A stretch of DNA of 64,000 nucleotides from an uncultured Myxococcales bacterium (GCA_903842345.1 CAIMLR010000017.1:33960-97959), one strand, 5' to 3'. Numbered from the stretch's first letter, positions 11,953-60,512 are shown. The notes: generated by a model not told the origin, from the sequence alone. Numbers and translations are program-made.

Positions 11953-14723
11953 GCCAGGACGTCCCGCACCTGAGCACGCCCGAGATCGGCGACGAGTTGG
12001 CCCGCATCCACGGTGGCAAGCCGCACGCGATGCTCGACACGGTGATCTTTGGCAGCACGCAGCCGGCCGAAGTCATTGTGCGCTTGGGCAACCGCGACCA
12101 GATATTTCGCGTAATACCGGCGACGTGTGAGCTGGCGCTGCGCGATGCCCTAGCCAACCGCGGAGATACGCCGGTCGCGGCCGTCATCGACTTTGGCGTC
12201 GACCTGCCGCTGGACATCAGTTGCCGCGTCGCCCAGATGCGGGTCCACACGCCCGACCGCGCCCAGCGCCTCGTGAGCCGTCTGGTCGATTTGGAGCCGG
12301 GCCAACGCATCGACGCCAGCGCGCCGTTGCTGCGCAGTGCGCTTGGCAAGGCGATCCTGTCGGGGATTCCGGTCCGGCAGCGGAAGGCCACTTGGCCGCT
12401 CATCGGCGTCGGCGATGCCTGGCGCGCCGTCCTGGCTGAAACGGCCGGGCTGCCGCTCGACACGACGCTGACCTTTGACCGCGTCCTGGAGCACGTTGCG
12501 ACGACGCAGAAGCCGGCGACGCTGACCGCCATCCTCGACGCCAACAAGGATCGCCGCAGCGAGTTCGATGTCTGGTTTACCGGCGAGGTCGGTGCCCCGG
12601 CGCTGCAGGCGTGGAAAGCGTGGGAGCGCGGCGACGGCGGCAAGGTGGCGGCTGTGGCCGTGCTGCTGCGCGCCGCCCGCGACCACTACGCCAGCAACCC
12701 GTTCCTGCAAGGCTGGCTGACGCTGCCGCTGAAAAGTGCGGGCGTCAGCATCGACGGTGAGAAGGACGTCACCATTTGGGCCGATGCCGGTCAGAGCCTG
12801 CTGGTGCGCTTGGATACGAGCGGCAACACCTGGCAGGTCCAGCAGCTCATCGACGCTGCGTCCGAGATGGCCTCCGAGGAAGTCGTGCGCGAGCAGCTGG
12901 CGGACAGCAACTGGCTGCCGTTCGCGTTCGAGATCCAAAAGCGTCGGCTCGCCAAGGCGCTCACTGACGCTGGCGCGACCGAGTCGGCACAGGCACAGAA
13001 AGATGCCCGCGAGGCACTCAAGGCCCTGCGTGCCCATCGCCTCGCCAATCACCATGCCAATGCCGGCCTGCTGGCCCGAGGCGAAGCGGCCATCCGCCTA
13101 CTGGCATGTCTAACGCGCGCGGAGGTCAGTCGTCCTGTTGGCTGGGAAGCCGTCGCGAGCTACGCATCCGAATACGCGCAGGAAGGTGGCTACGTCGACC
13201 GCGCCCGGCGTGCCCTGCGAGGTGAGAACGGCACCGACGAGCTGGGCGACGCGATGCAGGACGTGTTGCGGCGAGCCGACAAGGCCCGTGACGCGCTGGA
13301 CTTGGCGTTTGCGCGAAGCCTGGCTGCGTGGGCAAACGCGGGGCGACCGGCTGCGGGCGTGCTGCCCATCGAGATGGTGCTGGAGCGGATGGCCGCGCAG
13401 TTCCTCGACCAAGGCCCGGAACGCAAGCTGCTGGTGCTCGTACTCGATGGCTTGTCGTGGACGGTCGCGTGTGAGTTGCTGGAAGGCTGGGTCTCACGCG
13501 AAATATCACCGGTGCGCTGGAACCCGGACGGCTTCGCAGCAGGCACGCTGGTGCCCGTGCTGGCCGCGCTGCCCACGGCGACTGACGTCAGCCGCGCGGC
13601 GCTCTTTGCCGGGAAGCGGATGCAGTCCGGTGTCACGCACTACACGGCGGGCGACACGGACCGCTTTGCCCATCATCCGGGCCTGTGTCGGCATGTTACG
13701 CGAGCGGGCGGACCGACGCTCCTGCTGCGCGCCAAGCTGGAAGGATCGGCGACGGCCATTTCGCCCGAAGCGCTGCGGCTGCTGCAGAGCGCGGACCGCG
13801 TCGTAGCGTGCGTGGTCAATGCAATCGACGACGACCTCAGCGGCACGACCCAAGCCAAGCTGTCCTATGGTCCGGACGACGTGCCGCTGGTGCGGGAACT
13901 GCTGTCCCAGGCGTTTGCCGCCGGCCGTCACGTACTGCTGACCTCCGACCACGGCCACGTCCCAGGCGCTCGGCTGAAGTACCGGGCGACGACAAACAAC
14001 AAGGGCGCGCGCTGGCGGCAAATCGCTCCGGGTGAACAGCCTGCGGCTGATGAGATCGCGCTGACCGGCGACTGCGTATGGCTTCCGCCCGGCGCAGAAC
14101 GTGTGGCGCTGCTTGCCAGTGAGACGGCTCGCTTTTCGACATCCGCGCTGGCCGGTGAACACGGTGGAGCGTCGCTGGCCGAGGTCGTGATCCCGGCGGT
14201 GATTCTGGGCAACAGCGAGTTGGACCGGCAGTTCCGCGACACCGACCCTGCCTTGGAGCAGATTCCGCTGCGGCAGCCGACGTGGTGGCAGCTTGAGGGC
14301 TGGGTAGAAGAAGCGCCAGTCAAGCCAGCAAAGACCGCGCCTGCTCCGACCAAGAAGAACGTCATGGCGCTGCCCGGGCTTGTCGACGTCGCCCCGCCAG
14401 TGACCGACCCCGCGAAGAAACCGTCGCACGTCCGGCAGCTGATCCTCGAGTCCAAGCTGTTCGATTCGCTGACGGCGTACCAACGCGACCAGATGCAAAC
14501 GCGCGTCCTGCCGTGGCTGGAGGCCATCGAAGGTGCAGGCGGGCAGATGTCCGCGGACCGCTTTGGCCAAGCCGCTGGGCTCCTGCCCACACGCGTCGGC
14601 GGTGCTGTGTCGCTGATGCAGGAGTCCATCAGCATGGACGGGTACGAGCCGGTGACGTTCGACGCGACCACGCGCGAGCTCAAGCTGCACATGGACCTGC
14701 TCAAACAGCTGTGGGGAGGCTAG
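11949..14723 (+). CDS. pglZ: BREX PglZ alkaline-phosphatase-superfamily protein
   Basis: PglZ-type motifs LLVLVLDGLSWTV and LLTSDHGHVPG. 924 aa from TTG 11949. Alternative in-frame ATGs at 12027 and 12237. Confidence 0.85.
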   Translation: MSQDVPHLSTPEIGDELARIHGGKPHAMLDTVIFGSTQPAEVIVRLGNRDQIFRVIPATCELALRDALANRGDTPVAAVIDFGVDLPLDISCRVAQMRVHTPDRAQRLVSRLVDLEPGQRIDASAPLLRSALGKAILSGIPVRQRKATWPLIGVGDAWRAVLAETAGLPLDTTLTFDRVLEHVATTQKPATLTAILDANKDRRSEFDVWFTGEVGAPALQAWKAWERGDGGKVAAVAVLLRAARDHYASNPFLQGWLTLPLKSAGVSIDGEKDVTIWADAGQSLLVRLDTSGNTWQVQQLIDAASEMASEEVVREQLADSNWLPFAFEIQKRRLAKALTDAGATESAQAQKDAREALKALRAHRLANHHANAGLLARGEAAIRLLACLTRAEVSRPVGWEAVASYASEYAQEGGYVDRARRALRGENGTDELGDAMQDVLRRADKARDALDLAFARSLAAWANAGRPAAGVLPIEMVLERMAAQFLDQGPERKLLVLVLDGLSWTVACELLEGWVSREISPVRWNPDGFAAGTLVPVLAALPTATDVSRAALFAGKRMQSGVTHYTAGDTDRFAHHPGLCRHVTRAGGPTLLLRAKLEGSATAISPEALRLLQSADRVVACVVNAIDDDLSGTTQAKLSYGPDDVPLVRELLSQAFAAGRHVLLTSDHGHVPGARLKYRATTNNKGARWRQIAPGEQPAADEIALTGDCVWLPPGAERVALLASETARFSTSALAGEHGGASLAEVVIPAVILGNSELDRQFRDTDPALEQIPLRQPTWWQLEGWVEEAPVKPAKTAPAPTKKNVMALPGLVDVAPPVTDPAKKPSHVRQLILESKLFDSLTAYQRDQMQTRVLPWLEAIEGAGGQMSADRFGQAAGLLPTRVGGAVSLMQESISMDGYEPVTFDATTRELKLHMDLLKQLWGG
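12101..12120. repeat. Short AT-rich motif copy (GATATTTCGCGTAATACCGG) of the GTATTT..GTGATAC family, inside the annotated 5' end of pglZ
   Basis: Matches the copy at 58996-59026 (ATATTTCGCGTGATAC) in 16 of 17 positions. Confidence 0.4.
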
Positions 14724-14726
14724 GCC

Positions 14727-16058
14727 ATGTCCAACGTCTCCCTACTTCGCCGCCAGGAGATTGTCGCCGCGCTGCGCAACGGCACCGTCCCCGAGTTCGG
14801 CTTTGACCAGCTCGCCGTTGGCATCGAGCGCTTCTCGACCGCCATCGACGAGGAACTGGAGCGCGTGGCCCGCGGCCGCGGCGGATTCAAAGCCGTGCGC
14901 GGCGACTGGGGCGCGGGCAAGACGTTCTTTAGCCGATGGTTGCAGAATCGCGCGCGTGCCCAAGGCTTCGCCACGGCCGAGGTGCAGATCTCCGAGACGG
15001 AGACGCCGCTGTACCGCTTGGAGACCGTCTACCGGCGCGCGATGGAGCACTTGCGGACGCGCGAGTGGAACGACGGCGCTTTTCGCGCGCTGGTGGAGCG
15101 CTGGTTCTTCTCGCTGGAAGAGGAGGTGCTGGCGCAGCCGGGTGCGCCGACTGACGAGAGGCTGGTCGCCAAGGCAGTGGCCGAACTGCTGGAAGGCCGC
15201 CTGAACGCGGTCAGCGCCACGCACCCGCAGTTCGCCGCTGCGCTGCGCGCCGTCTACAAGGCCCGCATGGACGGAGACCCGGCGACCGCCGACGGCCTGC
15301 TGGCGTGGCTGATGGGCGAACCGCATGTGGCCGCCAGCGTGAAGCAGCGCGCCGGCGTCAAAGGCGAGGTCGACCACTTTGCGGCGACCGGGTTCCTGCG
15401 CGGCCTGTTGTCCGTCCTGAACCAGACGGGCCGGCGCGGACTGGTGCTGGTGCTGGACGAGGTAGAGACGATCCAGCGGATGCGCTCCGACGTGCGCGAG
15501 AAGAGCCTGAACGCACTACGGCAGTTCCTGGATGACTTGGACGGCGGTCGCTACCCAGGGCTGTACCTCGTCATCACCGGCACGCCCAGCTTCTTTGACG
15601 GCCCACAAGGCGCCCGCCAATTGCCGCCGCTGGCCCAACGCCTGCACGTCGACTTCGGCGCGGACCCGCGCTTTGACGCCACGCGCGCCATCCAGATCCG
15701 CCTGCAGCCGTTCGACCAGGCGCGACTGTTGGAAGTGGGCCAGAAGGTACGCGCCCTCTACCCGACCAAGCACCCTGAACGCGTAGCAGAGCGGCTGTCC
15801 GACGACGTGCTGGTCGCGCTAGCTCGCAAGGTGGCCGGGCAACTCGGCGGCAAGGTCGGTTTGGCGCCACGGCTGTTCCTGAAGAAGCTCGTCGGCGACG
15901 TGCTGGACCGCATCGAGGAGTACGAGGACTTCGACCCGGTGCAGCACTACCAGCTCACCGTGTCTGCGTCGGAGCTGTCAGACGTGGAGCGCGCCGCGGC
16001 CGGCATCGAGCGCAGCGTCGACGACATCGAGCTTGACCTGAGCGGCGGCGACACGTGA
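14727..16058 (+). CDS. brxD: BREX BrxD ATP-binding protein
   Basis: Walker A RGDWGAGKTFFSRW. 443 aa, typical BrxD size. ATG 4 nt after the pglZ stop. Confidence 0.8.
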   Translation: MSNVSLLRRQEIVAALRNGTVPEFGFDQLAVGIERFSTAIDEELERVARGRGGFKAVRGDWGAGKTFFSRWLQNRARAQGFATAEVQISETETPLYRLETVYRRAMEHLRTREWNDGAFRALVERWFFSLEEEVLAQPGAPTDERLVAKAVAELLEGRLNAVSATHPQFAAALRAVYKARMDGDPATADGLLAWLMGEPHVAASVKQRAGVKGEVDHFAATGFLRGLLSVLNQTGRRGLVLVLDEVETIQRMRSDVREKSLNALRQFLDDLDGGRYPGLYLVITGTPSFFDGPQGARQLPPLAQRLHVDFGADPRFDATRAIQIRLQPFDQARLLEVGQKVRALYPTKHPERVAERLSDDVLVALARKVAGQLGGKVGLAPRLFLKKLVGDVLDRIEEYEDFDPVQHYQLTVSASELSDVERAAAGIERSVDDIELDLSGGDT

Positions 16059-18157
16059 CGGCGTTCGAGCGCTTGAGCCCCGCGATGCAGTACCAGATCG
16101 TCAACGCTCTGGGCTTTCAGTCGCTGCGCCCGGTGCAGGAAGTCGCGATTCCGCCGATTCTGGACGGCGCCAACTGCGTGGTGCTTGCGCCGACGGCGGG
16201 CGGCAAAACAGAAGCGGCGTTCTTCCCGCTGCTCTCGCAAATGGACACGCACGGCTGGCAGCCGGTGTCGGTGCTGTACGTGTCGCCGATCCGCGCGCTG
16301 CTGAACAACCAGGAGGAGCGCCTGCGCAGCTACGCCACCGTGCTGGGGCGTCGTGTGGCGGTATGGCACGGCGACGTCTCGCAGCGGGACAAACGCAAGT
16401 TCCTGCAGGAACCCGCGGACATCCTGTTGACCACGCCTGAGTCGCTGGAAGTGATGCTGATGAGCAGCAAGGTGCCGTCGCGCAGGCTGTTTGCCGGTTT
16501 GCAGGCGGTGGTCATCGACGAGGTGCACGCGTTTGCCGGCGACGACCGCGGCAGTCACCTGATGGCCGTGCTGGAGCGCCTGTGCCGTTTCTGTGGCCGC
16601 GACGTGCAGCGCATTGGACTGTCGGCGACGGTTGGCAACCCGGAGGAAATCCTGACGTGGCTGCAGGGCTCGTCGACGCGGCCGGGCGTGCTGGTGTCGC
16701 CGCCACGGCCACCGTCCACGCCGGAGATTGTCATCGACTACGTCGGCACGCTGGAGAACGCCGCGCGGGTTATCGCGCAGATGCATCGCGGCAAGAAGCG
16801 GCTGGTCTTTCTGGATAGCCGGGCAGGCGTCGAGTCGCTGGGGCAGCACCTGCGGGATCTGGGCGTGGACACGTACGTGCTGCACTCGTCATTGGCGCCG
16901 GATGAGCGGCGCAGGAGCGAAGCGGCGTTCGCCGAGCGGCAGAACTGCGTCATCGTGGCGACCAGTTCGCTGGAGTTGGGCATCGACATCGGCGACCTCG
17001 ACCATGTGCTGCAGATTGACGCGCCACGGACGGTCGCCAGCTTCCTGCAGCGCATGGGGCGGACCGGGCGCCGTGCCGGGGCGACGTCGAACTGCACGTT
17101 CCTGGCCACGGACGATGACGCGCTGTTGCAGGCCGCGGCCCTTTTGCGCCTGTATCGCAATGGCTTCGTCGAGTCGGTAGTGCCGGTGACGCGTGCGTTT
17201 CACATCCTCGCGCACCAGCTGCTGGCGCTGGGGCAGCAGGAGCAAGGCATCCCGCTGGCCGACTGGTGGGCGTGGGTCGGCCAAGCGGCGCCCTTCAAGG
17301 ACATCACCGCCGACGAACGCACCGCGCTCCTCGCGCACATGATGGCGGAGCAGATTCTCGTTGAGGATGGCGGCCGTCTGAGCCTCGGCCCCCAAGGCGA
17401 AAAGCTCTACGGCGGAAAGAACTTCCTGCCGCTGTACTCGGTGTTCGACACTGCGGACAGCCTGGATGTCTGCTACGGCCAGCGTATCATCGGTAATATC
17501 GAGTCCACGTACGTCGAGCAGCAAGGCGCGGGCGACCTGACGTTCACGCTCGGGGCGCGGGCCTGGCGCGGGTTGTACGTCGATTGGCAGCGGCATCGCC
17601 TCTACGTGGAACCGGCAACCCACGCCAATGCGCCATCGTGGCGAGGTTCGCCCGCGTTCCTCTCGTCCGAGCTGTGCGGCGCCATGCGGGACGTGCTGCG
17701 GGACGAAGGTCCCGCACCGGAATGGTCCAAGCGAGCAGAGAGCCAGATGGATGCGGTGCGCAAGACACGTCTGCATCAGGCGGACGCAGACGGGCAGCTG
17801 CTGCCGGAGACGGACGGGCTGTCGCTCTGGACGTTTGCGGGCGGGCGGGCCAACCATGTGGTGGCGAAGGTGCTGCAGGAGCTGATTGGCGAGAAGGTGA
17901 CTGCAGACAACCTGCGGATCAGGTTCAGGAGCGGCGCTGCGGACGTGGAGAAAATTCAGGGTGCGATGCAGGTGCTGGCAGAAGAGCACCGGCCAAACCG
18001 TGAGGATGCCCTGCGGGTGGTGGTGAAGATTGCCAAGGCGAAGTTGAGCAAGTTCCAGCCCTGTTTGCCGCCGGAGCAGGAGGCGGAGGTGCTGGTGGGA
18101 CGGTTGGTGGATTTGGGGGTGGTCGGAGATTTGGTGCGGCGATTGGCGGCGGGGTGA
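16055..18157 (+). CDS. brxHI: BREX BrxHI Lhr-like DEAD/DEAH-box helicase
   Basis: Walker A VVLAPTAGGKTEAAF. Motif II VVIDEVHAF. Helicase C motifs QRMGRTGRR. The GTG start overlaps the brxD stop (GTGA). Confidence 0.85.
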   Translation: MTAFERLSPAMQYQIVNALGFQSLRPVQEVAIPPILDGANCVVLAPTAGGKTEAAFFPLLSQMDTHGWQPVSVLYVSPIRALLNNQEERLRSYATVLGRRVAVWHGDVSQRDKRKFLQEPADILLTTPESLEVMLMSSKVPSRRLFAGLQAVVIDEVHAFAGDDRGSHLMAVLERLCRFCGRDVQRIGLSATVGNPEEILTWLQGSSTRPGVLVSPPRPPSTPEIVIDYVGTLENAARVIAQMHRGKKRLVFLDSRAGVESLGQHLRDLGVDTYVLHSSLAPDERRRSEAAFAERQNCVIVATSSLELGIDIGDLDHVLQIDAPRTVASFLQRMGRTGRRAGATSNCTFLATDDDALLQAAALLRLYRNGFVESVVPVTRAFHILAHQLLALGQQEQGIPLADWWAWVGQAAPFKDITADERTALLAHMMAEQILVEDGGRLSLGPQGEKLYGGKNFLPLYSVFDTADSLDVCYGQRIIGNIESTYVEQQGAGDLTFTLGARAWRGLYVDWQRHRLYVEPATHANAPSWRGSPAFLSSELCGAMRDVLRDEGPAPEWSKRAESQMDAVRKTRLHQADADGQLLPETDGLSLWTFAGGRANHVVAKVLQELIGEKVTADNLRIRFRSGAADVEKIQGAMQVLAEEHRPNREDALRVVVKIAKAKLSKFQPCLPPEQEAEVLVGRLVDLGVVGDLVRRLAAG

Positions 18158-18158
18158 G

Positions 18159-18180
18159 GGGTATTACTGGAAATACGGCC
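18159..18180. repeat. Short AT-rich inverted-repeat motif (GGTATTACTGGAAATACGG) 2 nt after the brxHI stop
   Basis: GTATT-N6-AATAC hairpin-capable. Near reverse-complement match to the 60491 copy. Confidence 0.45.
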
Positions 18181-18189
18181 GGGAACGAG

Positions 18190-18612
18190 TCAAGCCGGAT
18201 CCTGCGGCGGCCAGTCTCCAACCGCTGGTGGGTCAAAGTAACGATCGAGCACAGCAGCCTCGACGCTGGGCTGAGAGCGCAAATAGTCACTAAGGATTTC
18301 GCGGAACGTGCCGCGCCCCAACTCGCTGCGAATTGTTATGTCAATGAAGTTGCTCTTCTTGAGGTTGCAATCGCCGCATAGGTACTCGAGGTTGCTCCAA
18401 CTCGTCTCGCCGAAGAGTGAATATGGCCATCGGTGATCCGCCTGCATTGACGAGAGTCCCACATGATCAATGACTTTTCCACATGGACGGCAAGTCACGA
18501 CCGGGTAGGTGTATCCGACCAACTTCTTTGCGTGCTGACGAAACCACAGATCCCTCCAACTGCTCGGGAACGTCCGCTGAAGGGGGTCACATGTTGGCAC
18601 ATTGTCATCCAC
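18190..18612 (-). CDS. HNH endonuclease
   Basis: 140 aa. HNH motif CRPCGKVIDHVGLSSMQADHRWPYSLFGETSWSNLEYLCGDCNLKKSNF (Cys box plus DH..N..H). Overlaps the upstream DUF262 gene by 8 nt. Confidence 0.8.
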   Translation of the reverse strand: MDDNVPTCDPLQRTFPSSWRDLWFRQHAKKLVGYTYPVVTCRPCGKVIDHVGLSSMQADHRWPYSLFGETSWSNLEYLCGDCNLKKSNFIDITIRSELGRGTFREILSDYLRSQPSVEAAVLDRYFDPPAVGDWPPQDPA

Positions 18613-20188
18613 GGCGCTCTATTTCCTCACAGATTTGAAATGTTGCGTCCACCTGCTGCAATTGCCCGGGCCACTTCCCTTTCGCAATGGGATACTTGAT
18701 TTTGAACTTGTCCTCGATGTCCTTGGGACCGGACGTCAGGAATTCACTCGTCAGGCGCCACTGGCGTTCTGTCATGCCGTCAGGCGACTTGAACGCTTCC
18801 GCAGCCGCAGCAATGAACAGAGCCACCTTGCGCGCTGAACTGACCGTCAGGCTAGGAATCTTTGCCGTCTTGATCGTATTGAACCAGAGCTCAAAGTCAG
18901 CAAACCACCGTTGCACGACCGATAGTGTCGGTAAGAATACGGCTCGATTTTCACCTGAACTCTCGTACAATGCTTGCGCGCAGAACAAGTCGAGAACTGA
19001 GGTGGTCGTCCTGTCGTATCGAATGCGAACCGTGTCTCGTGTTTTTTGGGTCATCAGCGCATCATAGGCACGCCGCGGTCGCTCAGCGAGCATTCGAGCG
19101 ATTACGTAGTACAGGAACATTTCAGATGGCGCTTGTCCGACCGCCTGCCGGCTATCTCCCCACCAAGCGGCCCACGGCTGATGGTCCTTCCATGGAAAAA
19201 CCACACCGTGTCCCTCCGCCGCGGCAATCATGCGGGCGCCGGCCGTTCCCGCCGGTTCTCTGATACCCGCAAGACGAATCAGAGATACCCGAGCACAATC
19301 GCCGAAAGACGCCAAGCGGAGGTCGTGCGCGCTGAGAGGGACTCCCTCTTCATTGATCCGGCGAAAAATCAGCAGGCGCAGACTGAGATCAAGATTTTTC
19401 GGAAGAACGATAAGGTTGATCACGTAATCCCGGATTTGTTCTTGGATGTCCGGAGGCAACTCGCTGAAATGCTTTCCTTGAATCTGCGCGCCAACGTTCT
19501 CGGCATACTCAACGTCGTTTTCTGACGCCAACTTGAATTGATCCCTCATGAAGGAGTCTAGGGTGGTCAGCCGCTGTTGGCCATCAATAACTTGTCTGAC
19601 TTCAATTCCCGCCGAATCATCCTCAGGATACACGAGGATAGGTGGCACGGTAAGGTTGTTGATTACGGATTCAATGAAAAGCGATCGCTTCTCGTCACTC
19701 CACTCCGCCGCGTCGCGCTGATACGAGGGGATCTTGTACTTTCCTCGTCTCATCGACCCCATAATGGTGGCGACGTTCAGCGATTGTGCTGTGGTTGCGG
19801 ACGTGACGAGCGGCATGAAGGTGGGCATTTGTCCCTCGCGGTTGCCATTGGTAATTGGCGTAATTGATGGCACGACCGCGCCAACGCTAAGTGACGTTGA
19901 TCGCGCGGTCACCGCTTGAACAACAGGTGCGGTCGAGTCCGAACGTCCCGATCCTAGCGCTGCCTGCAGGTAATAGCCCCACGACCCGGCGGCGCGGATG
20001 ACCCGTCGTGCCGGATCAGCGGACACCACCGACAATCGAGACCGAATGCTGCCGTTCGAGTACCCCTGCGCCGCGAAATCCGCATCTGCGTTCAATCGTC
20101 CGATGACATCGGTCGCGCTCATGCGCTCGGCGATATCAGATGACAAAAACTTCTCAGCGCATTGTTCGATCCAGTCGTCCATGTTCAT
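18605..20188 (-). CDS. DUF262 (ParB-like nuclease/GmrS N-terminal family) protein, the partner of the HNH nuclease in a split GmrSD-like type IV restriction module
   Basis: DUF262 motifs KYKIPSYQRDAAEW and IDGQQRLTTL. The C-terminal half has no HNH motif; the nuclease is supplied by the downstream ORF. The ATG at 20188 is preceded by GGGAGA; the track start is TTG at 20203. Confidence 0.75.
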   Translation of the reverse strand: MNMDDWIEQCAEKFLSSDIAERMSATDVIGRLNADADFAAQGYSNGSIRSRLSVVSADPARRVIRAAGSWGYYLQAALGSGRSDSTAPVVQAVTARSTSLSVGAVVPSITPITNGNREGQMPTFMPLVTSATTAQSLNVATIMGSMRRGKYKIPSYQRDAAEWSDEKRSLFIESVINNLTVPPILVYPEDDSAGIEVRQVIDGQQRLTTLDSFMRDQFKLASENDVEYAENVGAQIQGKHFSELPPDIQEQIRDYVINLIVLPKNLDLSLRLLIFRRINEEGVPLSAHDLRLASFGDCARVSLIRLAGIREPAGTAGARMIAAAEGHGVVFPWKDHQPWAAWWGDSRQAVGQAPSEMFLYYVIARMLAERPRRAYDALMTQKTRDTVRIRYDRTTTSVLDLFCAQALYESSGENRAVFLPTLSVVQRWFADFELWFNTIKTAKIPSLTVSSARKVALFIAAAAEAFKSPDGMTERQWRLTSEFLTSGPKDIEDKFKIKYPIAKGKWPGQLQQVDATFQICEEIERRG

Positions 20189-21799: not shown

Positions 21800-22801
21800 A
21801 TGTCCGATACCGTACTCCGCCACTGGACGATGCTCCGCCAGGTCCCGCGCCATCCGCGCAAGGTAGGCGCCGCACAATTGGCCCGAGTGCTCAGCAACGC
21901 TGGCTTTGACGTCTCGCGGCGATCCATCGAGCGCGACCTCAACAAGCTCTCGACCGTGTTCCCGCTGCGCTGCGATGACGAGCACAAGCCGTACGGCTGG
22001 TCATGGATGGCCGACGCGACCGCGTTCGACTTGCCCGCGATGGACGTTCACGCGGCATTAGCGTTCCGCATGGCCGCAGATCATCTGCACGCGCTGCTCC
22101 CCGAGGTGACGCGCAGCCACCTGGACCCGCACTTCCGGCGAGCGAAGGCCGTGCTCGATGGCCTGAATGACAACGTGCTCTCCGATTGGCCGGACAAAGT
22201 GCGCGTCATGCCAGCGGGCCAGCCGATGCTGCCGCCGGCGATCCCGCAGGACGTGCTGGAAAACGTGCAGGCGGGGCTGCTGGCGGAGAAACAATTGCGC
22301 GTCGTGTACCGCAAGCGCGGTGAGGCGGAGGCGCGGACGTACCTCGTGCATCCGCAGGCGCTCGTCTGGCGCGACGCGGTCGGGTACTTGCTGTGTATTT
22401 TGTGGAAATACGACGATTTGAAGCAGTTCGTGCTGCATCGCATGGAGTCAGTCGAGCTGGTGGACGAGCCGCGCCGTCCGCTGCCTGGCTTCTCGCTCGA
22501 CGCGGAGATCGCGACTGGCTCGTTTAGCTTCTTGCTGGCTGACCAGTCGATCGAGCTGGAGGTGCTGTTCCATGCATTCGCCGCAGTCCGGGTGCGCGAG
22601 ACGCCGGTGGCCGTGACCCAGGAGCTGGTCGAGCAGCCCGACGGCAAGATCCTGCTCCGCGCCACGCTGGCCGACACCGTGCAACTGCGGACGTGGCTGC
22701 TCAGCATGGGCGAGTACGCGGAAGTGCTGGGGCCGCCGGCGTTGCGCAAGTCGATCGCGACCAGCATCCGCGAGATGGCGGACAAGTACGCGGGCGACTA
22801 A
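21800..22801 (+). CDS. HTH plus WYL-domain transcriptional regulator (BrxR/CapW-like)
   Basis: ATG at 21800 (MSDTVLRHWTMLRQVPRHPRKVGAAQLARVLSNAGFDVSRRSIERDLNKL is an N-terminal wHTH like YafY/BrxR). WYL-type segment RVVYRKRGEAEARTYLVHPQALVWRDAVGYLLC. 333 aa. The track ORF extends upstream to TTG 21413 through a low-complexity leader. Confidence 0.75.
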   Translation: MSDTVLRHWTMLRQVPRHPRKVGAAQLARVLSNAGFDVSRRSIERDLNKLSTVFPLRCDDEHKPYGWSWMADATAFDLPAMDVHAALAFRMAADHLHALLPEVTRSHLDPHFRRAKAVLDGLNDNVLSDWPDKVRVMPAGQPMLPPAIPQDVLENVQAGLLAEKQLRVVYRKRGEAEARTYLVHPQALVWRDAVGYLLCILWKYDDLKQFVLHRMESVELVDEPRRPLPGFSLDAEIATGSFSFLLADQSIELEVLFHAFAAVRVRETPVAVTQELVEQPDGKILLRATLADTVQLRTWLLSMGEYAEVLGPPALRKSIATSIREMADKYAGD

Positions 22802-22870
22802 TCGGCAGCGGAAACGCATGCGACACGGATTGTCGCAGCCTTCCCGTACATTCTACGGCGGAGGTTTCCC

Positions 22871-24916
22871 ATGTTTGAATACGAACTCACAGCCGACAGC
22901 CACACTCGCCAATGCGCCATCTGGACCACCCGCCTGGTCCTCGCGGGCCTCGCGCACCATCCGCGTGGGCCTGACGCGTTGGATACCTTGGACACCGAGA
23001 CGCGGCGACTCGTTGGCCTGCAGCACACGCCGGAGCACTCGCCCCTTACGGTTGCTGCACTGCAAGACCGCCTAGCGGCGCTGGAACCTGACAAGTCGGC
23101 GCGCGGAGGGGCGCTGTTTGCCAACGTGACGATGCTCGGCGACTCGCTTGGGCTGTCGAAGTTGGAGCGCGACCTGCTGGCGCTCGCGGTCATGATGAAC
23201 ACGACGGAGGGTGTGAACGAGATCTTCTGGCAGATCGCGCCGGTGCCGTGGTCTCGCGTGGCGGCGATTCTGGCAGCGGTCCTGGAGTCGACGCCGGCGG
23301 AAATGCACGCTGCTCTCAGCCCTGGGGCGCCACTCGTCGCGACACGGCTGGTCAAGCGCGGTGGAGTGCGCAAACCTCAGCAACTGCTGGACTTGCCGGA
23401 GGGTTTTGTCGGGCTGATTCTGGAAGAACATAGCGACGCGGACGCGCTGGTCGCCAACCTGTTCCGCCCCGCGCCGCCTCCGACGCTGACAATCGCCGAT
23501 TTTCCGCACGTCGCGGCCGATCTGGAGCTGCTGGTGCCGATCCTCAAGACGGCGTACCGCGATGGGACACTCGGGTTTGACGTGCTCATCCATGGACCGC
23601 AGGGCACGGACAAGACGGAGCTGGTGCGGGTCATTGCGCATGAAGTCGGCGCGCGGCTGTGCGAAGTGAATCTCGTGGACAACGACGGCGATGCGCTGAG
23701 CGGCGGCAAGCGGCTGGCGGCGTGGGCGCTGTCGCAGGGGATACTGAGGCACAAACCCGGGTCATTGTTGCTGTTTGAGAAAGCGGAGGCCGTGTTTCCA
23801 TGCGACCCTCGGGCCAGAATATTCGGCGAGGAGCCGGAAAGTCGCGTTGGCGAGGGCTGGCTGAACCGCGCGCTGGAGACGCATCCGGTGCCCACGGTGT
23901 GGGTCAGCAACGCGATTGACCAGCTCGACCCCGCGTACCTGCGGCGCTTTGACATCGTCGTGGAGGTGGGGCCCGCGCCGGCGTCGATTCGGCGACAGAT
24001 GCTGAACCGGCATTTGAGCGCGCTACCGCTGGGCGATTCGTGGCTGGATCGCGCGGCAAACGACGTGCGGCTAGCTCCTGCGCACGTGAAGAGGGCGGCG
24101 CGGGTGGTGCGCATGCTGGAGTCGGACTGCGCTGTGACGACGGAAGCCGCGCTGGACCGCCTGCTGGAGCCGGGACTGGACGGAAGTGGCACCCGACGAA
24201 TTGGCGGGACAATGGACGTCGGGCCGTACGACCTGAGCTTGGTGAACGCCAGCCGCGACGTGCAAGCACTGGGTGCGGCTTTGGCCAAGAATCCGCGCGG
24301 GACGCTGTGCCTGTACGGGCCGCCGGGGACGGGCAAGACGGCGTTCGTGCAGCACTTGGCGACGCTGACGGGTTTGCCGCTGTTGCAGAAACGCGGCTCG
24401 GATTTGAGGGGCAAGTACGTCGGCGAGACGGAGAAGGCGATCGCAGCAATGTTCCGTCAGGCGCGTGACGAGCGGCGCATGCTGTTCCTCGACGAAGCGG
24501 ACACGTTCCTGCAGGATCGCTCGACCGCGCAGCGCCATTGGGAGGTGTCGTTCGTCAACGAACTGTTGGTGCAGATGGAGGCGTTTGACGGGCTGTTTGT
24601 CTGCGCGACCAACCTTGTGGACAGCCTGGACCGGGCGTCGCTGCGGCGATTTTCGCTGAAGATTCGCTTCGATCCGCTGAGCGCGGTGCAGCGGTGGGAG
24701 ATGTTGACGCAGCTCTGCGGGAAGACGCCAGAAGAGTCCCTGCGGGCGCGGCTGGACAAGGCGGACGGGCTGGCGGCGGGCGATTTCGCCGTGGTGGCGC
24801 GGCAGGAGGCGATGCTCGGCACGCAGGCATCGGCCGAGGCGATGGTCACGGCGCTGGAGGAGGAACTGGCGATGAAGTCCGGGACGGCGCGGCGGGTGGC
24901 GGGATTCGCCAGATGA
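22871..24916 (+). CDS. Tandem AAA+ ATPase (two AAA modules)
   Basis: First Walker A VLIHGPQGTDKTELV. Second Walker A LCLYGPPGTGKTAFV, with Walker B LFLDEADTF and a CbbX/SpoVK-like module. 681 aa. Starts 70 nt downstream of the WYL regulator. Confidence 0.8.
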   Translation: MFEYELTADSHTRQCAIWTTRLVLAGLAHHPRGPDALDTLDTETRRLVGLQHTPEHSPLTVAALQDRLAALEPDKSARGGALFANVTMLGDSLGLSKLERDLLALAVMMNTTEGVNEIFWQIAPVPWSRVAAILAAVLESTPAEMHAALSPGAPLVATRLVKRGGVRKPQQLLDLPEGFVGLILEEHSDADALVANLFRPAPPPTLTIADFPHVAADLELLVPILKTAYRDGTLGFDVLIHGPQGTDKTELVRVIAHEVGARLCEVNLVDNDGDALSGGKRLAAWALSQGILRHKPGSLLLFEKAEAVFPCDPRARIFGEEPESRVGEGWLNRALETHPVPTVWVSNAIDQLDPAYLRRFDIVVEVGPAPASIRRQMLNRHLSALPLGDSWLDRAANDVRLAPAHVKRAARVVRMLESDCAVTTEAALDRLLEPGLDGSGTRRIGGTMDVGPYDLSLVNASRDVQALGAALAKNPRGTLCLYGPPGTGKTAFVQHLATLTGLPLLQKRGSDLRGKYVGETEKAIAAMFRQARDERRMLFLDEADTFLQDRSTAQRHWEVSFVNELLVQMEAFDGLFVCATNLVDSLDRASLRRFSLKIRFDPLSAVQRWEMLTQLCGKTPEESLRARLDKADGLAAGDFAVVARQEAMLGTQASAEAMVTALEEELAMKSGTARRVAGFAR

Positions 24917-25027
24917 TGAAGCTGGCTCGGTGACGCCCTCGTGCGCGCCGCCTTCCAGTGAGGCACGCCAACCGCTAGAGTTGGTCGACTGGCCAGCCGC
25001 CGCGACCATGTTCCAAGAGGCAGACCC

Positions 25028-25755: not shown

Positions 25756-25774
25756 AAATTTTACGTGATATCAC
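25756..25774. repeat. Short AT-rich motif copy (AAATTTTACGTGATATCAC) 2 nt after the metallophosphoesterase stop
   Basis: GTATTT..GTGATAC family. Contains the palindrome GTGATATCAC. Confidence 0.45.
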
Positions 25775-26589: not shown

Positions 26590-26611
26590 GGTATTACCAG
26601 GTGATACGGCG
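26590..26611. repeat. Short AT-rich motif copy (GGTATTACCAGGTGATACGGCG) in the intergenic region upstream of the Ubl gene
   Basis: GTAT-N-GTGATAC family. Confidence 0.4.
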
Positions 26612-28026: not shown

Positions 28027-28061
28027 CGTCAGCGCGACCGGCATCGACAACAGACGGCCTC

Positions 28062-29531: not shown

Positions 29532-29930
29532 ATGAAGCCATTGGCAAAGAACGCGGGCGACATCCTGGACGCGCTGACAGCGGGACTGGAGATCGGCGGC
29601 GCGCGCAAGATCGACAACGGCACCTACATGGCCGTCCACGTGGACAGGCTGAGCCAGGCGACTTTTAGCGTCGCGCACTACTTCAAGCAGAACGGCGAAC
29701 TGGTGTGCGACCCGGACGGCGTGTTCCTCAAGACCGCCGCCGGCTGGTTGCCCGTGACGCTGCAGCTCAGCACCGGCCATTACACCGTGGCGGTCGAGTT
29801 GGACGGCAACGACAAGCCGACAGGTTGGCGGCCGCGGCAGTACCGCGAGTTGCACTCGTTCGCGGCGATGTGGCTGCGAAACATTCGCGAGCAGCAAGGC
29901 GGACTGCGCAATATCACCGAAAATACATGA
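29532..29930 (+). CDS. Hypothetical protein (132 aa)
   Basis: ORF co-directional with the Ubl-E2-JAB-E1 cluster. No recognisable motif. Confidence 0.45.
   Translation: MKPLAKNAGDILDALTAGLEIGGARKIDNGTYMAVHVDRLSQATFSVAHYFKQNGELVCDPDGVFLKTAAGWLPVTLQLSTGHYTVAVELDGNDKPTGWRPRQYRELHSFAAMWLRNIREQQGGLRNITENT
29906..29927. repeat. Short AT-rich motif copy in reverse orientation (rc: TGTATTTTCGGTGATATTGCGC), overlapping the last codons of the 132-aa ORF
   Basis: GTATTTT-CGGTGATA family. Confidence 0.4.
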
Positions 29931-40986: not shown

Positions 40987-41010
40987 CAAAAAATCACCTG
41001 AAAATACGCA
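40987..41010. repeat. Short AT-rich motif copy in reverse orientation (rc: GCGTATTTTCAGGTGATTTTTT)
   Basis: GTATTTT-N-GGTGAT family. Intergenic between the HDAC-like gene and the giant lipoprotein gene. Confidence 0.4.
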
Positions 41011-47551: not shown

Positions 47552-47577
47552 CGGGCAGCACGCCCGCCTGCCACCCG

Positions 47578-47605
47578 CCGGTATTTTACGTGATACGCGT
47601 GCGGC
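47578..47605. repeat. Short AT-rich motif copy (GGTATTTTACGTGATACGCG) flanked by CGCCG/CGGCG arms, ~27 nt after the XRE stop
   Basis: GTATTTTACGTGATAC core. Confidence 0.45.
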
Positions 47606-47668
47606 GCCCAACTATTCTTCAGAATCGTCTGCGCGCACACGATGCCGACCGCGGACCGGTCCAGTTGG

Positions 47669-49180: not shown

Positions 49181-49207
49181 CGGCCGAATCACGGAAAATA
49201 CGCGGTG
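49181..49207. repeat. Short AT-rich motif copy in reverse orientation (rc: GCGTATTTTCCGTGATTCGG)
   Basis: Lies just downstream of the stop of the 49224-50534 minus-strand gene. Confidence 0.4.
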
Positions 49208-49223: not shown

Positions 49224-50534
49224 CTACAGTGCGCCGATAGCGTCGCGAAACTGAGCAAGGACGTCTTCTTCGGTCTCCCGCAGCAGCCGCCAACAGATTC
49301 CCCTCCGCTTTCCGTTCCATTCTGTGACGCCCAGGGCTTCCAGAATTGGCCCAAGATAAGACGCCGCTTGGGCGTGGGTCACTTTGCCTGTCGCGTCGTA
49401 GATGAACTTCCCCAGTCCGTCCTTCTCGTCGCCGGCGTGCATCTTCGTGACGTTGTTGGCCAATGGAAACCAGCCCTGACGAAAGTCGCCGAACAGTTTT
49501 CTGAGCAGTGCTTCGGTCTCGACGAGAGTGAACCGGTCCATTCGGTTCGCGTCGTTGCGGGACTCAAGCGCATCGAGCGATACCTCGAAGGAAAACGTCT
49601 TCGCGTTCGCGCCGCCTCGGGTCGTGCAACCGGCTCCCGCAAACCCAGCCGCAGGCACTGCTTCGCCAGCATCCTCCGCGCCCGCGAAACGCCCAAGGTC
49701 GTAACCAATCATGAAGAGCGCCGCCTCCAGCGACCGGAGCGGTTCCGGCTGTGTTCGGAACTGCGACGTCGGACTCAGCCGAAGAACCTCGGCCAGTAAC
49801 CAACTGGCGGCGACATTCCAGCGCGCGTGTGCGCTTGCAGGTGCCAAGGTCGCAAATCGCAACGCGCCGCGGCTTGGATCGCGGTTCTTCGGGTTCACCA
49901 TGTTCTGGGCCTCTTTGGCCGCACCCCAGGGGAACGCCAAGTTGGCCGGGACCGCCGCGACGCCATTTTCCACACAGTACTGGGCAATCAAGTGCCCAAG
50001 CGCCGCGCCGACGCGACCGTCGTAGATGACGTAGTCGTCGAGCAGGAGCGAGTGAACTTTGGTCAGCCCGGAGTTCATCCGTTTGACGGACATCTGGCCC
50101 AGCCGAGCCGTGTCGGGGGCGAGCAGCCCCATGTCGTGTCGGAGCGCTTCGACAAGACCGAGCGGATCGCCCTCGGCCCAATCGACGTTGCCGTTGGCCA
50201 CGCCGCCCCACTTGAACACCAAGCAACTCGCTTGGACGGTCCCGTCGGCGTCTCCGGTGGACACCGCACGTCTGAGATCTGTTCTGAGCTTGGCCAACAC
50301 GCGCGTGCTCGCTCCAAACGTGGACTCTGCCTTCGTGCGTCCGTCTGGAAAGGTCACGCGGAAGGGCCATGAATACTGTTCGAACGCGTCCCAAATTGAA
50401 TCGCACTGCCACAGGATGCCGTTTCGGCGATTGACGTACGCGTGCGGTAGGCTGCCGGGGCGGTCCAGCCGCTCCGCAAGCCACTGGGCGAAGCCGGCCA
50501 CGTCAGGATCGTTCAAGTAGGCTGTTCTGTTCAT
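49224..50534 (-). CDS. Hypothetical protein (436 aa), last gene of a 3-gene minus-strand operon
   Basis: ORF. 4-nt overlap with the upstream 115-aa ORF. Confidence 0.45.
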   Translation of the reverse strand: MNRTAYLNDPDVAGFAQWLAERLDRPGSLPHAYVNRRNGILWQCDSIWDAFEQYSWPFRVTFPDGRTKAESTFGASTRVLAKLRTDLRRAVSTGDADGTVQASCLVFKWGGVANGNVDWAEGDPLGLVEALRHDMGLLAPDTARLGQMSVKRMNSGLTKVHSLLLDDYVIYDGRVGAALGHLIAQYCVENGVAAVPANLAFPWGAAKEAQNMVNPKNRDPSRGALRFATLAPASAHARWNVAASWLLAEVLRLSPTSQFRTQPEPLRSLEAALFMIGYDLGRFAGAEDAGEAVPAAGFAGAGCTTRGGANAKTFSFEVSLDALESRNDANRMDRFTLVETEALLRKLFGDFRQGWFPLANNVTKMHAGDEKDGLGKFIYDATGKVTHAQAASYLGPILEALGVTEWNGKRRGICWRLLRETEEDVLAQFRDAIGAL

Positions 50535-50878
50535 TTGTCTTCCTCGCTTGATCCCGACCGAGACGTGGTTTCTAAGGGCCGGTCAGTACAATCCTGACGT
50601 AGCCGTTCGCATAGTGCCCGAGCCAAGTCGATCATCCCCTCGTGCATCTCGTCGGCGCCCTCGGCGTGGAAGCGCAGCGTCCCAAACTTCTCCTTGATCT
50701 GCACCGCGACGACCTGCGTCGCCCCGTCCGCGTCCGTGTGGAACTGCAGGCGCGTGCAGAGTAGATCCAAGAGGTCGAACCAGCCGTCGCCGCACGCAAT
50801 GCCGGCTCCGGACCCCTGCAGGCGCCCGAGGATCCGACCGTGACGCGTGAACAGCAATTCTTGAAGTTCGGGGCTCAC
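50531..50878 (-). CDS. Hypothetical protein (115 aa)
   Basis: ORF. 4-nt overlaps with both flanking genes. Confidence 0.4.
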   Translation of the reverse strand: MSPELQELLFTRHGRILGRLQGSGAGIACGDGWFDLLDLLCTRLQFHTDADGATQVVAVQIKEKFGTLRFHAEGADEMHEGMIDLARALCERLRQDCTDRPLETTSRSGSSEEDK

Positions 50879-52458
50879 GGCGCTTCCTCAAAGGGCCCCG
50901 GCAGCCGCATCGCCGGCCGCGCTTGGGGCCGAAAATCAAGCGCCATCAACCGCACCCGGCACTGCACGCACACGGACATCCAGGTCGCTTCGCTACGCCC
51001 ATCCGCAGATTCCTCGGGCGTGCGCGAGACAAAGAACCAACGAACGTGGTCCTCCGTGCGGCAGTCTGGACACCGTCGGCCGCGACCGCGAAGGAAGCTC
51101 GGCGTCTCCATGAGCGCTTCACGCTCGGGTTCGCTCAGCACGGGGGATGCAGCGGTTTCGGCATTCGAACCCGACCGCGGCTTCCTTGACGGGCTCCGCT
51201 GCGCCCACCGCCGTTCCGGCGTGTCTGCTGCGCTCCACGCTGCCAGTTGCGCCTCAGGGACCCGAAGGTCGGCGCTATCGAGCAATTCGCGCCAGACGTC
51301 CTCGGGGTCACGGTCCGCGATTTGGCGCAGCGCAACAAACACCTCGTCATTGTAACGCATCTGCCAGTCTGGCGAGTCGAGCAGCGTGCGCGCAGCCACA
51401 CGGTTCATCGTCCACGCCCGAAGCAAGGGTGCGCCACCTTCAAGGTGCGGCGCCCCTGCGAGCGCGCGGATCGTCGACGGCGCGACGGCCGAGACCAGCG
51501 TGGGCCACGCAGCCAAGATAGCGTCGTCTGCTTCGTTGGCCCAAATGAGGTGGTCGTACGCGACGACGATGCGCGGGACGAGCTCCGTCGGGACGGGGCG
51601 CTCGGCCAGCCAACCAAGGATTTCCCGAAGGTCTTCGGGCAGCGCCAACCTGTCGACCAATACCCGGGCCAGCGCTTCCATCAGCGCGTTCCTTGGTGGC
51701 TTGCCGTCTTCATCCGGCGCAACTTCTGCCTCCGTATGCGCCGGCAGCTCATAGAACCGCCGGTTGTTTTTGTGCACGCTTTCCTCGGCTTTGTCCTCGC
51801 ACACGAGGCGCCCGCGCGCGGTCCATTCACCAAGCTGGTTGTTCTCGCCGACGACAAGCAGCGTCGGCAAATAGACCCAACTTCCTGAAAACCGGCGGAT
51901 TCTGCTGCTGAAGGATCGCCAATGGTGCGTTCCGAACCCGTGGTCCTGTGCTACGATGGCGAACGGCGCCATCCATGGGTACAGCGCGATCAGCGCCGAA
52001 AGCGCCTCGACGTTGAGAATCAGTAGGCTGAACCGTTCCGGGGTTCCGCGCAGCGTCGTCTCATACACGCCCCAGAGCCCAAAGCCAGGCGTGACGTCTG
52101 CGACCGGCATCTGTTCTGCCGGCAGCAGCCAGAGGCTCGGGCCAATGAACTCCGCGGCATCGAACTCAGTGAGCCCGACAAGCCGATGGTGCGCGAACCC
52201 CTGGCCATTGCGATGATTTTCGGTCATCGCGGCCGCGAAGGCGTCTCTACTAACGTCGAGGTCGAGGAAGATGAAGGAGCGCACGATGCCGCTCAACTGC
52301 CGAACGGGCGAGCTGTCGTCACCGCTGCCTGGGTAAACAAGCGCGCTTTCAAGCAACTGGCGCCGCCACAGGCTGGGGCCGGCCTGGATGCCGTCGGGCG
52401 TGAGCGCCGCGAGCCAATCGGGATTGGGCTGGGCGAGGTGCGCAAGGGCGTCGAGCAT
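50875..52458 (-). CDS. Hypothetical protein (527 aa) with a C-terminal Cys4 cluster (CPDC...CVQC)
   Basis: ORF. Possible zinc-ribbon RRCPDCRTEDH...SVCVQCRV. Divergent from the ADP-ribosylglycohydrolase gene. Confidence 0.45.
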   Translation of the reverse strand: MLDALAHLAQPNPDWLAALTPDGIQAGPSLWRRQLLESALVYPGSGDDSSPVRQLSGIVRSFIFLDLDVSRDAFAAAMTENHRNGQGFAHHRLVGLTEFDAAEFIGPSLWLLPAEQMPVADVTPGFGLWGVYETTLRGTPERFSLLILNVEALSALIALYPWMAPFAIVAQDHGFGTHHWRSFSSRIRRFSGSWVYLPTLLVVGENNQLGEWTARGRLVCEDKAEESVHKNNRRFYELPAHTEAEVAPDEDGKPPRNALMEALARVLVDRLALPEDLREILGWLAERPVPTELVPRIVVAYDHLIWANEADDAILAAWPTLVSAVAPSTIRALAGAPHLEGGAPLLRAWTMNRVAARTLLDSPDWQMRYNDEVFVALRQIADRDPEDVWRELLDSADLRVPEAQLAAWSAADTPERRWAQRSPSRKPRSGSNAETAASPVLSEPEREALMETPSFLRGRGRRCPDCRTEDHVRWFFVSRTPEESADGRSEATWMSVCVQCRVRLMALDFRPQARPAMRLPGPFEEAP

Positions 52459-54030: not shown

Positions 54031-54056
54031 GCGCGCTATCACCGAAAATACGCGCC
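54031..54056. repeat. Short AT-rich motif copy in reverse orientation (rc: GCGTATTTTCGGTGATAGCGCG), flanked by GCGCG/CGCGC
   Basis: Immediately downstream of the 54069 minus-strand gene stop. Confidence 0.45.
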
Positions 54057-58995: not shown

Positions 58996-59026
58996 GGCGC
59001 CATATTTCGCGTGATACGCGCTCGCC
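58996..59026. repeat. Short AT-rich motif copy (CATATTTCGCGTGATACGCG), flanked by GCGC arms, ~60 nt after the 57101-58936 stop
   Basis: Near-identical to the copy inside pglZ at 12101. Confidence 0.45.
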
Positions 59027-60418: not shown

Positions 60419-60490
60419 AGGTGCCCCACGGACGCGAGCATGCTGCCGGATAGGCGCGCGGTCAATGTGCGGACAGCCAGCAACGCCGGA

Positions 60491-60512
60491 GCGTATTTCC
60501 GGTAATATGGCC
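60491..60512. repeat. Short AT-rich motif copy (GCGTATTTCCGGTAATATGGCC)
   Basis: Intergenic. Near reverse complement of the 18159 copy. Confidence 0.45.

Follow-up and report, generated by a model that had tools for sequence, protein, structure and literature searches.

Dispersed AT-rich dyad motifs at gene 3' ends and convergent junctions in a defence-gene-rich region of an uncultured Myxococcales bacterium

We analyzed a 64,000-nt stretch of DNA (hereafter the window) from an uncultured Myxococcales bacterium (GCA_903842345.1 CAIMLR010000017.1:33960-97959), in which a short AT-rich dyad motif recurs at the 3' ends of genes. Together with 5.2 kb of upstream and 6.4 kb of downstream sequence, approximately 75 kb of this organism's DNA was examined, and all of it is island-like in gene content. 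The region that carries the motif extends over at least 75 kb and is rich in defence genes. The GC content of the window is 64.9%, lower than the ~69% given in a preliminary description of this DNA. Gene boundaries were taken from our own codon-usage gene calls and corrected with public gene calls. No tRNA genes were found in the window, and a search of it against Rfam returned no match at the gathering threshold.

The locus has been assembled repeatedly from stratified-lake metagenomes (ENA ERZ27313048, the BUCK21 scaffolds, and the NCBI metagenome-assembled genome GCA_903940895.1). Gene order is identical in these public contigs, and the sequences share 99.98-100% identity over the compared stretch. 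A Kazal/antistasin-type Cys-rich protein encoded in the window has named homologues from Polyangiaceae, Polyangiales, Myxococcales, and "Deltaproteobacteria", and for this reason we take the host to be a Polyangia-like member of the Myxococcota.

The genes of the window are arranged as follows.

382-18157: complete BREX type 2 (Pgl) operon, encoding PglW (NERD and two kinase domains), PglX methylase, PglY, PglZ, BrxD, and BrxHI helicase
18190-19873: HNH nuclease and GmrSD, 56% GC
21887-25753: WYL regulator (21887-22801), AAA ATPase, and metallophosphatase
26687-32492: ThiS- and ThiF-type ubiquitin-like genes, DUF6908, Rad52, and REase-ARP
33065-40899: 1261-aa and 275-aa proteins without family match, GNAT acetyltransferase, and deacetylase
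41188-49018: 1944-aa Cys-rich protein, XRE regulator (47222-47551), and Kazal-like protein
Right of a three-gene operon at 49224-52458: ADP-ribosylglycohydrolase, phosphatase, YqaJ, and ankyrin protein, then a long operon of unknown genes

To define the motif we began from the consensus of the preliminary description, GTATTTTNNGTGATA, which with up to two mismatches gave 8 matches in the window compared to 0.11 expected from dinucleotide-preserving shuffles. The bare frame TAT-N8-ATA occurred 13 times (0.35 expected), and the degenerate dyad TATYWYNNRWRATA (TATYWC-N2-GWRATA) occurred 14 times with at most one mismatch (0.24 expected), a symmetry compatible with binding by a dimer. When the same trinucleotides were placed at spacings of 5-7 and 9-11, each spacing gave only 0-5 matches, and the signal is therefore peculiar to the 8-nt spacing. 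We conclude that the motif is genuine and strongly non-random.

The element is a pseudo-palindrome of 14-16 bases, both halves of which fit TATYWC / GWRATA, and its ends read (C)GTAT and ATAC(G) on either side. Our working consensus is (C)G-TATYWC-N2(3)-GWRATA-C(G). Symmetric pairs are limited to three to five, mostly A-T, around the 8-nt centre, and the central bases vary among copies (CG, AC, CC, GC, CA). The commonest pairing joins a TATTTY half to a TATYAC half, a preference that was not significant. With a position matrix derived from nine copies, we recovered 13 sites that have the 8-nt centre. Five further sites have the same half-sites around a 9-nt centre, for a total of 18 copies in the window. 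There was no copy in the 5.2 kb upstream and one in the 6.4 kb downstream; the latter, a sixth copy with a 9-nt centre, overlaps a stop codon 1.6 kb outside the window. Copies occur in both orientations at a density of approximately one per 3-4 kb. They are listed here with strand and matrix score; a coordinate in brackets is that of the preliminary description.

3533..3548, plus strand: in-gene copy ATATTACCGGTGATAC, within pglW (382-4749); matrix 20.3; rare AT-ending codons
8184..8199, plus strand: in-gene copy ATATTTTGCGAAATAC, in pglX (4771-8295), ending 96 nt before the stop; matrix 20.8
12102..12117, plus strand (12101): in-gene copy ATATTTCGCGTAATAC, in pglZ, starting 150 nt past the pglY stop; matrix 24.5
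13491..13506, minus strand: in-gene copy ATATTTCGCGTGAGAC, in pglZ; matrix 19.9; one core mismatch
17484..17499, no strand assigned: in-gene copy GTATCATCGGTAATAT, in the brxHI helicase gene; matrix 16.8 / 16.4 on the two strands
18161..18176, minus strand (18159): copy GTATTTCCAGTAATAC, in a 32-nt convergent gap between the brxHI stop (18157) and the HNH stop (18190); matrix 24.5
22395..22411, plus strand: 9-nt-centre variant GTATTTTGTGGAAATAC, within the WYL regulator gene
25756..25771, plus strand (25756): copy AAATTTTACGTGATAT, 2 nt past the metallophosphatase stop (25753); matrix 23.9
26591..26607, plus strand (26590): 9-nt-centre variant GTATTACCAGGTGATAC, in the same-direction gap 26503-26686
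29911..29926, minus strand (29906): copy GTATTTTCGGTGATAT, overlapping the last six codons (NITENT*) of the DUF6908 gene, stop at 29928-29930; matrix 26.4
40991..41007, minus strand (40987): 9-nt-centre variant GTATTTTCAGGTGATTT, in the convergent gap between the deacetylase stop (40899) and the stop of the 1944-aa Cys-rich gene (41188)
47581..47596, plus strand (47578): copy GTATTTTACGTGATAC, in the convergent gap between the XRE stop (47551) and the Kazal-like stop (47669); matrix 26.5
49186..49201, minus strand (49181): copy GTATTTTCCGTGATTC, 22 nt past the stop of the 436-aa gene (49224) and 168 nt upstream of the Kazal-like start (49018); matrix 24.2
54036..54051, minus strand (54031): copy GTATTTTCGGTGATAG, in the convergent gap between the ADP-ribosylglycohydrolase stop (53894) and the stop of a 162-aa gene (54069); matrix 24.5
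59002..59017, plus strand (58996): copy ATATTTCGCGTGATAC, in the convergent gap between the stop of a 611-aa gene (58936) and that of a 386-aa gene (59231); matrix 24.6
60493..60508, plus strand (60491): copy GTATTTCCGGTAATAT, 18 nt past the stop (60527) of a 281-aa minus-strand gene; matrix 25.2
62818..62834, no strand assigned: 9-nt-centre variant GTATAACGCAGTGATAC, ~50 nt past the stop (62883) of a 680-aa minus-strand gene
63949..63965, no strand assigned: 9-nt-centre variant GTATCATCGCGGAATAC, within the 680-aa gene; the weakest member

The copies at 29911, 47581, and 54036 match the original consensus exactly. The preliminary description had listed 12 copies and claimed 12 or more sites; for 11 of these coordinates, motif-like sequence was found at most a few bases away. 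Seven copies had been missed (those at 3533, 8184, 13491, and 17484 in the BREX genes and the 9-nt-centre copies at 22395, 62818, and 63949). We do not count the remaining coordinate, 56979, as a copy, since its two half-sites are swapped (GTGATAC..GTATC) and it scores 13.5 with the matrix. The copies placed at 12101 and 58996, reported to agree at 16 of 17 positions, in fact have 15 of the 16 bases of the core in common, or 15 of 17.

The distribution of the copies relative to genes is strongly biased. Ten of the 18 are intergenic, although intergenic sequence makes up only 11.4% of the window (p=7e-6). All five convergent junctions (18157|18190, 40899|41188, 47551|47669, 53894|54069, and 58936|59231) carry exactly one copy. 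In contrast, there was none at any of the four divergent, promoter-containing junctions (Fisher p=0.008). Among the 25 same-direction junctions, five carry a copy, starting 2, 18, 22, ~50, and 89 nt past the upstream stop, and one more copy overlaps the DUF6908 stop; the downstream start codon is usually more distant than the upstream stop. The GC content ranges from 0.59 to 0.65 in the divergent gaps and from 0.56 to 0.66 in the convergent gaps; although free of copies, three of the four divergent gaps (~0.59-0.60) are more AT-rich than most of the convergent ones. Relative to the nearest gene reading into the site, the two orientations occur five and four times, so there is no strand logic, which is what a symmetric site in DNA should show. 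Almost all ends of gene clusters in the region carry a copy; the exception is the stretch from 30.6 to 39.9 kb, where a ~430-nt repeat, described below, trails each gene.

These data bear out, and strengthen, the proposal of an element that is scattered through the sequence and associated with the 3' ends of genes and with convergent junctions. Within the window, a frequency above that expected from composition (8 versus 0.11) and a positional bias (p=7e-6 and p=0.008) were both found. The statement that copies lie mostly just after stop codons holds for the ten intergenic copies, five of which are at convergent junctions, but not for the copy at 12101, which is inside pglZ.

The absence of copies from the four divergent promoter regions is also a point against the idea that the motif is the operator set of a local regulator, either the XRE protein encoded at 47222 or the WYL protein encoded at 21887, controlling genes of the island. 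The size of the dyad does suit a helix-turn-helix dimer, and the half-sites recall operators of the XRE family (HipB TATCC, lambda TATCAC), a likeness that serves as a lead only. However, operators are expected in the 5' regions of the regulated genes, including that of the regulator itself, and none of the four divergent regions has a site. Promoter regions were free of copies, including those upstream of the XRE and WYL genes, and we rejected a local operator or promoter element on these grounds. The closest counterparts of the XRE protein are controller proteins of restriction-modification systems, and the C-box operators of such proteins differ from the motif. BrxR/WYL boxes consist of 10-11 bp repeats with a 5-bp spacer and lie upstream of brxR (PMC9122601); a BrxR-type operator was likewise rejected, as both the architecture and the position of these boxes are unlike the motif. 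A sigma-70 promoter was rejected because there is no -35 partner and the sites lie between convergent genes. The reading of the motif as an XRE or WYL operator is therefore poorly supported, and we give a role of this kind only a very slim chance.

A second alternative is that the motif acts as RNA, either as a weak bidirectional intrinsic terminator or as a 3' stabilising hairpin in which GUAU pairs with AUAC and is extended by flanking G-C pairs. The placement of copies 2-93 nt past stops, one per convergent junction, is consistent with this, and the copies at 54036, 26591, and 47581 can be drawn as imperfect hairpins. However, each copy folded with ±22 nt of flank was no more stable than its shuffles (z from -2.0 to +1.0, mostly near 0). 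Complementarity of the flanks at positions 3-10 outside the core amounted to 2.0 pairs compared to 2.19 at random positions, which is the level of chance. The GC inverted arms of the preliminary description are thus a chance product of any GC-rich flank. No U-tract occurs at the motif, and only the copy at 40991 is followed by a T6 run. The conserved bases would sit in the loop, and at same-direction junctions the orientations are split two against two. A scan for canonical terminators returned fewer candidates than in shuffled sequence, and none at the convergent junctions with the motif. An intrinsic terminator consists of a G+C-rich hairpin followed directly by a U-tract, and the copies have no such arrangement. 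A hairpin or terminator was rejected, as neither folding of the copies and of whole intergenic regions, nor flank complementarity, nor the terminator scan gave a signal above chance; the terminator-associated element proposed earlier is poorly supported as a hairpin, and an RNA element of either type is highly improbable.

One of the few canonical-looking terminators in the window is located at 26542-26566 (CGGCG-ACGCA-CGCCG, then CGTTTTCATA), 25 nt upstream of the copy at 26591 and in the same gap. This organism can therefore have ordinary terminators alongside the motif.

Five copies, all with the 8-nt centre, lie in genes of the BREX-2 operon, where they are spelled with rare AT-ending codons; in the pglZ frame the copy at 12102 reads ATA TTT CGC GTA ATA, with four rare codons. 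Other long genes, namely the 5.8-kb gene of the Cys-rich protein and the 3.8-kb gene of the 1261-aa protein, contain none. Shuffling of synonymous codons within genes gave an expectation of 0.55 TAT-N8-ATA frames per set for all genes (maximum 3 in 300 shuffles), as compared to 5 observed, and of 0.16 for the BREX genes alone, as compared to 4 observed. Since a 16-bp insertion shifts the reading frame, it is improbable that the in-gene copies were inserted, and an origin in place is more likely. The plasmid homologues of PglZ, only ~30% identical, are too distant for comparison of these copies at the codon level. The weaker, rare-codon copies in the 18-kb operon suggest selection for site density where intergenic space is lacking.

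The in-gene copies also bear on the main rival in our ranking, namely that the motif is a selfish or drive-generated sequence, similar to repetitive extragenic palindromic (REP) elements or uptake signals, which survives where it is harmless, downstream of genes, and has no boundary function. Such a sequence would be spread by its own transposase or through biased uptake and recombination. Its density, its location downstream of coding regions between same-direction or convergent open reading frames (ORFs), and its occasional presence in genes fit the description of REP elements (PMC3733652). Copies occur in both orientations, and the motif is lineage-specific, as are REP families and uptake-sequence dialects. 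Density and location also fit the DNA uptake sequence (DUS) of Neisseria and the uptake signal sequence (USS) of Haemophilus. On the other hand, REP elements are defined by a 6-13 bp stem, a 2-3 nt loop, and a GTAG or CGTC tag (PMC3733652), and the copies have neither such a stable stem-loop nor either tag, nor do they form doublets or clusters. The in-gene 16-mers, being out of frame as insertions, also argue against mobility, and no Y1 transposase was found in the ~75 kb.

Recent copying would be expected to leave sub-families or extended homology, and we saw neither. Copy-paste sub-families that were apparent by eye were not significant compared to column permutation: mean nearest-neighbour identity among the copies was 15.4/20, and 15.5 ± 0.3 after permutation. 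The alignment columns vary independently, and the copies are thus not a copy-paste family. There was no homology among the copies outside the motif core. The earlier suggestion of a REP-like repeat is therefore borne out in location, but not in stem, tag, or copy-paste structure. Overall, we consider a REP- or uptake-like origin fairly unlikely.

To determine how widely the motif occurs, we used 204.5 kb of related Myxococcota loci with a GC content of at least 60%, reached via homologues of the Kazal-like protein, as an outside control. These contained 5 TAT-N8-ATA frames and no matrix match of 15 or more, whereas the 64-kb window contains 13 of each. In the neighbourhoods of the relatives' orthologous or paralogous Kazal genes (51-69% protein identity), convergent junctions were plain GC-rich sequence with no matrix match. 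Relatives reached through one metagenome scan likewise had no copies. The exact 15-mer gave single chance matches in viral and genome contigs; among the matches listed no taxon was enriched and none shows amplification of the 15-mer, which counts against a REP-like origin. The motif is specific to a lineage or to an element.

If it belongs to an element, the copies could be loading or centromere-like sites of a partition or silencing protein, of ParB/KorB type or other, in a large integrated mobile element. In favour of this, dyads of 14-16 bp occur at fairly regular intervals over at least 70 kb, within and between genes, and cargo of mobile elements is present (Rad52, YqaJ, DUF6908, REase-ARP, and an IS4 transposase at the contig end). 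A parS site is a 16-bp palindrome related to TGTTNCACGTGAAACA and accompanied by a ParB/ParA locus. If the register is moved by one base, one copy agrees with chromosomal parS in 12 of 15 positions, the others being worse, and the A-type halves resemble those of the Noc site ATTTCCCGGGAAAT but are each one base pair shorter; both are leads only. The parS-like register fails for the other copies, no ParB, KorB, or ParA is found among the annotated genes of the ~75 kb, and strict placement at 3' ends is not a property of known centromere sites. Partition sites are accordingly improbable. A search for relatives of Rad52 and YqaJ in viral contigs found none.

It is also possible to view the motif as a recombination site that marks the boundaries of cassettes or modules in a defence island, like attC or plasmid dif modules. 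Copies do edge distinct acquired modules (BREX-2, GmrSD/HNH, WYL-AAA-phosphatase, ubiquitin-like, and the three-gene operon), and some touch or overlap stop codons. However, the differing central bases would block strand exchange by tyrosine or serine recombinases, orientations do not alternate, five copies are inside BREX genes, and no recombinase was found in 75 kb. The public contigs with the same gene order show no module polymorphism. An attC site has the layout R''-L''...L'-R' with GTTRRRY cores, a uniform orientation, and a nearby integrase; here there are no such cores, orientations are mixed, the centre is variable, and no integrase was found. This explanation is very improbable.

Several other features of the island were noted. 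The low-GC segment at 18001-20000 (~56%, HNH/GmrSD) has a sole copy of the motif, at 18161 on the BREX boundary, and this segment is probably the most recently acquired module. At 26687-29342, ThiS-like and ThiF-like genes flank two proteins without family match (350 and 203 aa), in what looks like a defence module for bacterial ubiquitin-like conjugation (Bil-type); the DUF6908, Rad52, and REase-ARP genes that follow are cargo typical of conjugative elements. The three-gene operon at 49224-52458 on the minus strand (527, 115, and 436 aa) has no Pfam, NCBIfam, or PADLOC match, and homologues of its 436-aa protein share at most 43% identity and are scattered among Dethiobacter, Pseudomonas, Burkholderia, and Planctomycetota. 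It is therefore a candidate for an uncharacterised defence system. The minus-strand operon at the right end continues beyond the window for at least nine genes without family match (equivalent to window coordinates 64001-70391). The contig ends on the right in a transposase of the IS4 family (DDE_Tnp_1), which occurs in multiple copies in these metagenomes, on contigs no longer than 2.8 kb; this end may be the edge of the island or simply an assembly break.

The minus-strand gene at 41188-47022 encodes a 1944-aa secreted-type Cys-rich protein with 13 Dicty_CTDC repeats and a C-terminal FGE-sulfatase/C-type-lectin-like domain. This fold is a frequent target of diversity-generating retroelements; we saw neither a template repeat nor a reverse transcriptase. 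Public gene callers split or mis-strand it and also call a 70-aa ORF at 40994-41206 on the minus strand, the 3' end of which overlaps the copy at 40991.

A non-coding-looking repeat of ~430 nt with 70-88% identity is present at 32514-32962, 37024-37450, and 38357-38770, and partially at 39398-39550. Each copy fills the gap after a plus-strand gene (REase-ARP, 1261-aa, 275-aa, and GNAT) and ends 11-100 nt before the next start. Its indels are not multiples of three, and an Rfam search with it returned nothing at E<=1. Its possible roles include those of a shared leader or promoter, a cassette boundary, and an RNA. The sequence GTATCCGTCATAATATCC, present in every copy, has a weak likeness to the motif (10/16); a link between motif and repeat was rejected because of the weakness of this match and the lack of nhmmer support.

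The explanation we favor, with a probability of roughly 35%, is that each copy serves independently as a double-stranded site recognized by a dimeric, sequence-specific DNA-binding protein, the sites being located at the 3' boundaries of transcription units. The fixed dyad frame, the independent columns, and the lack of both structure and strand logic point to a protein site. The occurrence of one copy per convergent junction, directly after stops, and the absence of copies from promoter regions suggest a boundary role. Two TATYWC half-sites of 6-7 bp, inverted around a centre of 2 bp (sometimes 3 bp), would form the putative site of one dimer, and the predicted complex would act as a boundary in both directions. 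It might do so as a roadblock that halts or insulates read-through between neighbouring or converging units. Alternatively, it might recruit topology-managing enzymes where positive supercoils accumulate. In other bacteria this niche is occupied by REP/BIME elements (PMC3733652) and by bidirectional hairpin terminators.

Several observations weigh against a bound boundary element. No binding protein was identified; the sole small helix-turn-helix proteins nearby are the XRE and WYL regulators, neither of which has a site at its own promoter. A rigid dimer would not usually accept centres of both 8 and 9 nt. With five copies inside it, the BREX-2 operon would also be blocked by a tight roadblock, and the position at 3' ends may show no more than where the genome can accommodate an AT-rich 16-mer, whatever its function. 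Finally, the sites are known from one island-like region of ~75 kb.

It could be speculated that this Polyangia lineage marks the ends of its transcription units, all convergent junctions among them, with a sequence-specific protein-DNA complex that stops or insulates transcription from both sides, as a bacterial counterpart of roadblocks of the mTERF or Reb1 type and in place of hairpin terminators, a proposal that we regard as quite unlikely. If the sites are bound boundary elements, they would represent a means of marking off bacterial transcription units that relies on a protein and is specified by sequence, in a GC-rich phylum with poorly understood terminators, and would offer a compact 16-bp insulating part for myxobacterial engineering. 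If the motif is instead REP- or uptake-like, lineage-specific genome "dialects" would extend to the Myxococcota and would be useful for binning and for recognizing lineages in metagenomes. In either case the motif, with 16 bp, at least 18 copies, and strict placement, is a clean and testable handle.

The motif can be compared with several known systems. Like REP elements and bacterial interspersed mosaic elements (BIMEs), it is a short, lineage-specific dispersed palindrome that occurs about once per few kilobases, mostly downstream of genes, rarely between divergent ORFs, and occasionally in genes. Unlike them, it has no G+C stem, tag, or clusters; its conserved part is AT-rich with nothing conserved beyond 16 bp, and no REP-associated tyrosine transposase (RAYT) was seen in the 75 kb, whereas REP families have over 100 copies per genome and a cognate RAYT (Y1 transposase) gene. 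The DUS of Neisseria and USS of Pasteurellaceae are similarly dense, occur in both orientations and in coding DNA while being over-represented near terminators, and form lineage dialects. They are, however, non-palindromic 9-12-mers, often in inverted pairs, whereas the motif is a single dyad per site, known here from ~75 kb. DUS and USS are known from only two proteobacterial families, number thousands of copies per genome, and are favoured in uptake by the competence machinery.

As with bidirectional terminators, one symmetric element is present per convergent junction, close to the stops, and could serve both transcripts; in contrast to them, there is no stable hairpin and no A- or U-tract, and it is sequence rather than structure that is conserved. 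TRIT, a non-canonical terminator motif of conserved sequence in Mycobacterium tuberculosis, has a longer conserved hairpin. The motif resembles TRIT as a lineage-restricted sequence after stops, often between convergent genes, in a GC-rich genome, but lacks its hairpin. Helix-turn-helix operators (HipB TATCC-N8-GGATA and the lambda TATCACCG half-sites) share with the motif inverted half-sites within 14-18 bp that start with TATC or TATT, and the columns of the motif are independent, as in a family of binding sites. The spacing of the half-sites differs, and the motif avoids promoters and sits at gene 3' ends. The motif does not qualify as a member of any family tested, and we would class it as a novel form of dispersed extragenic palindrome located at gene ends.

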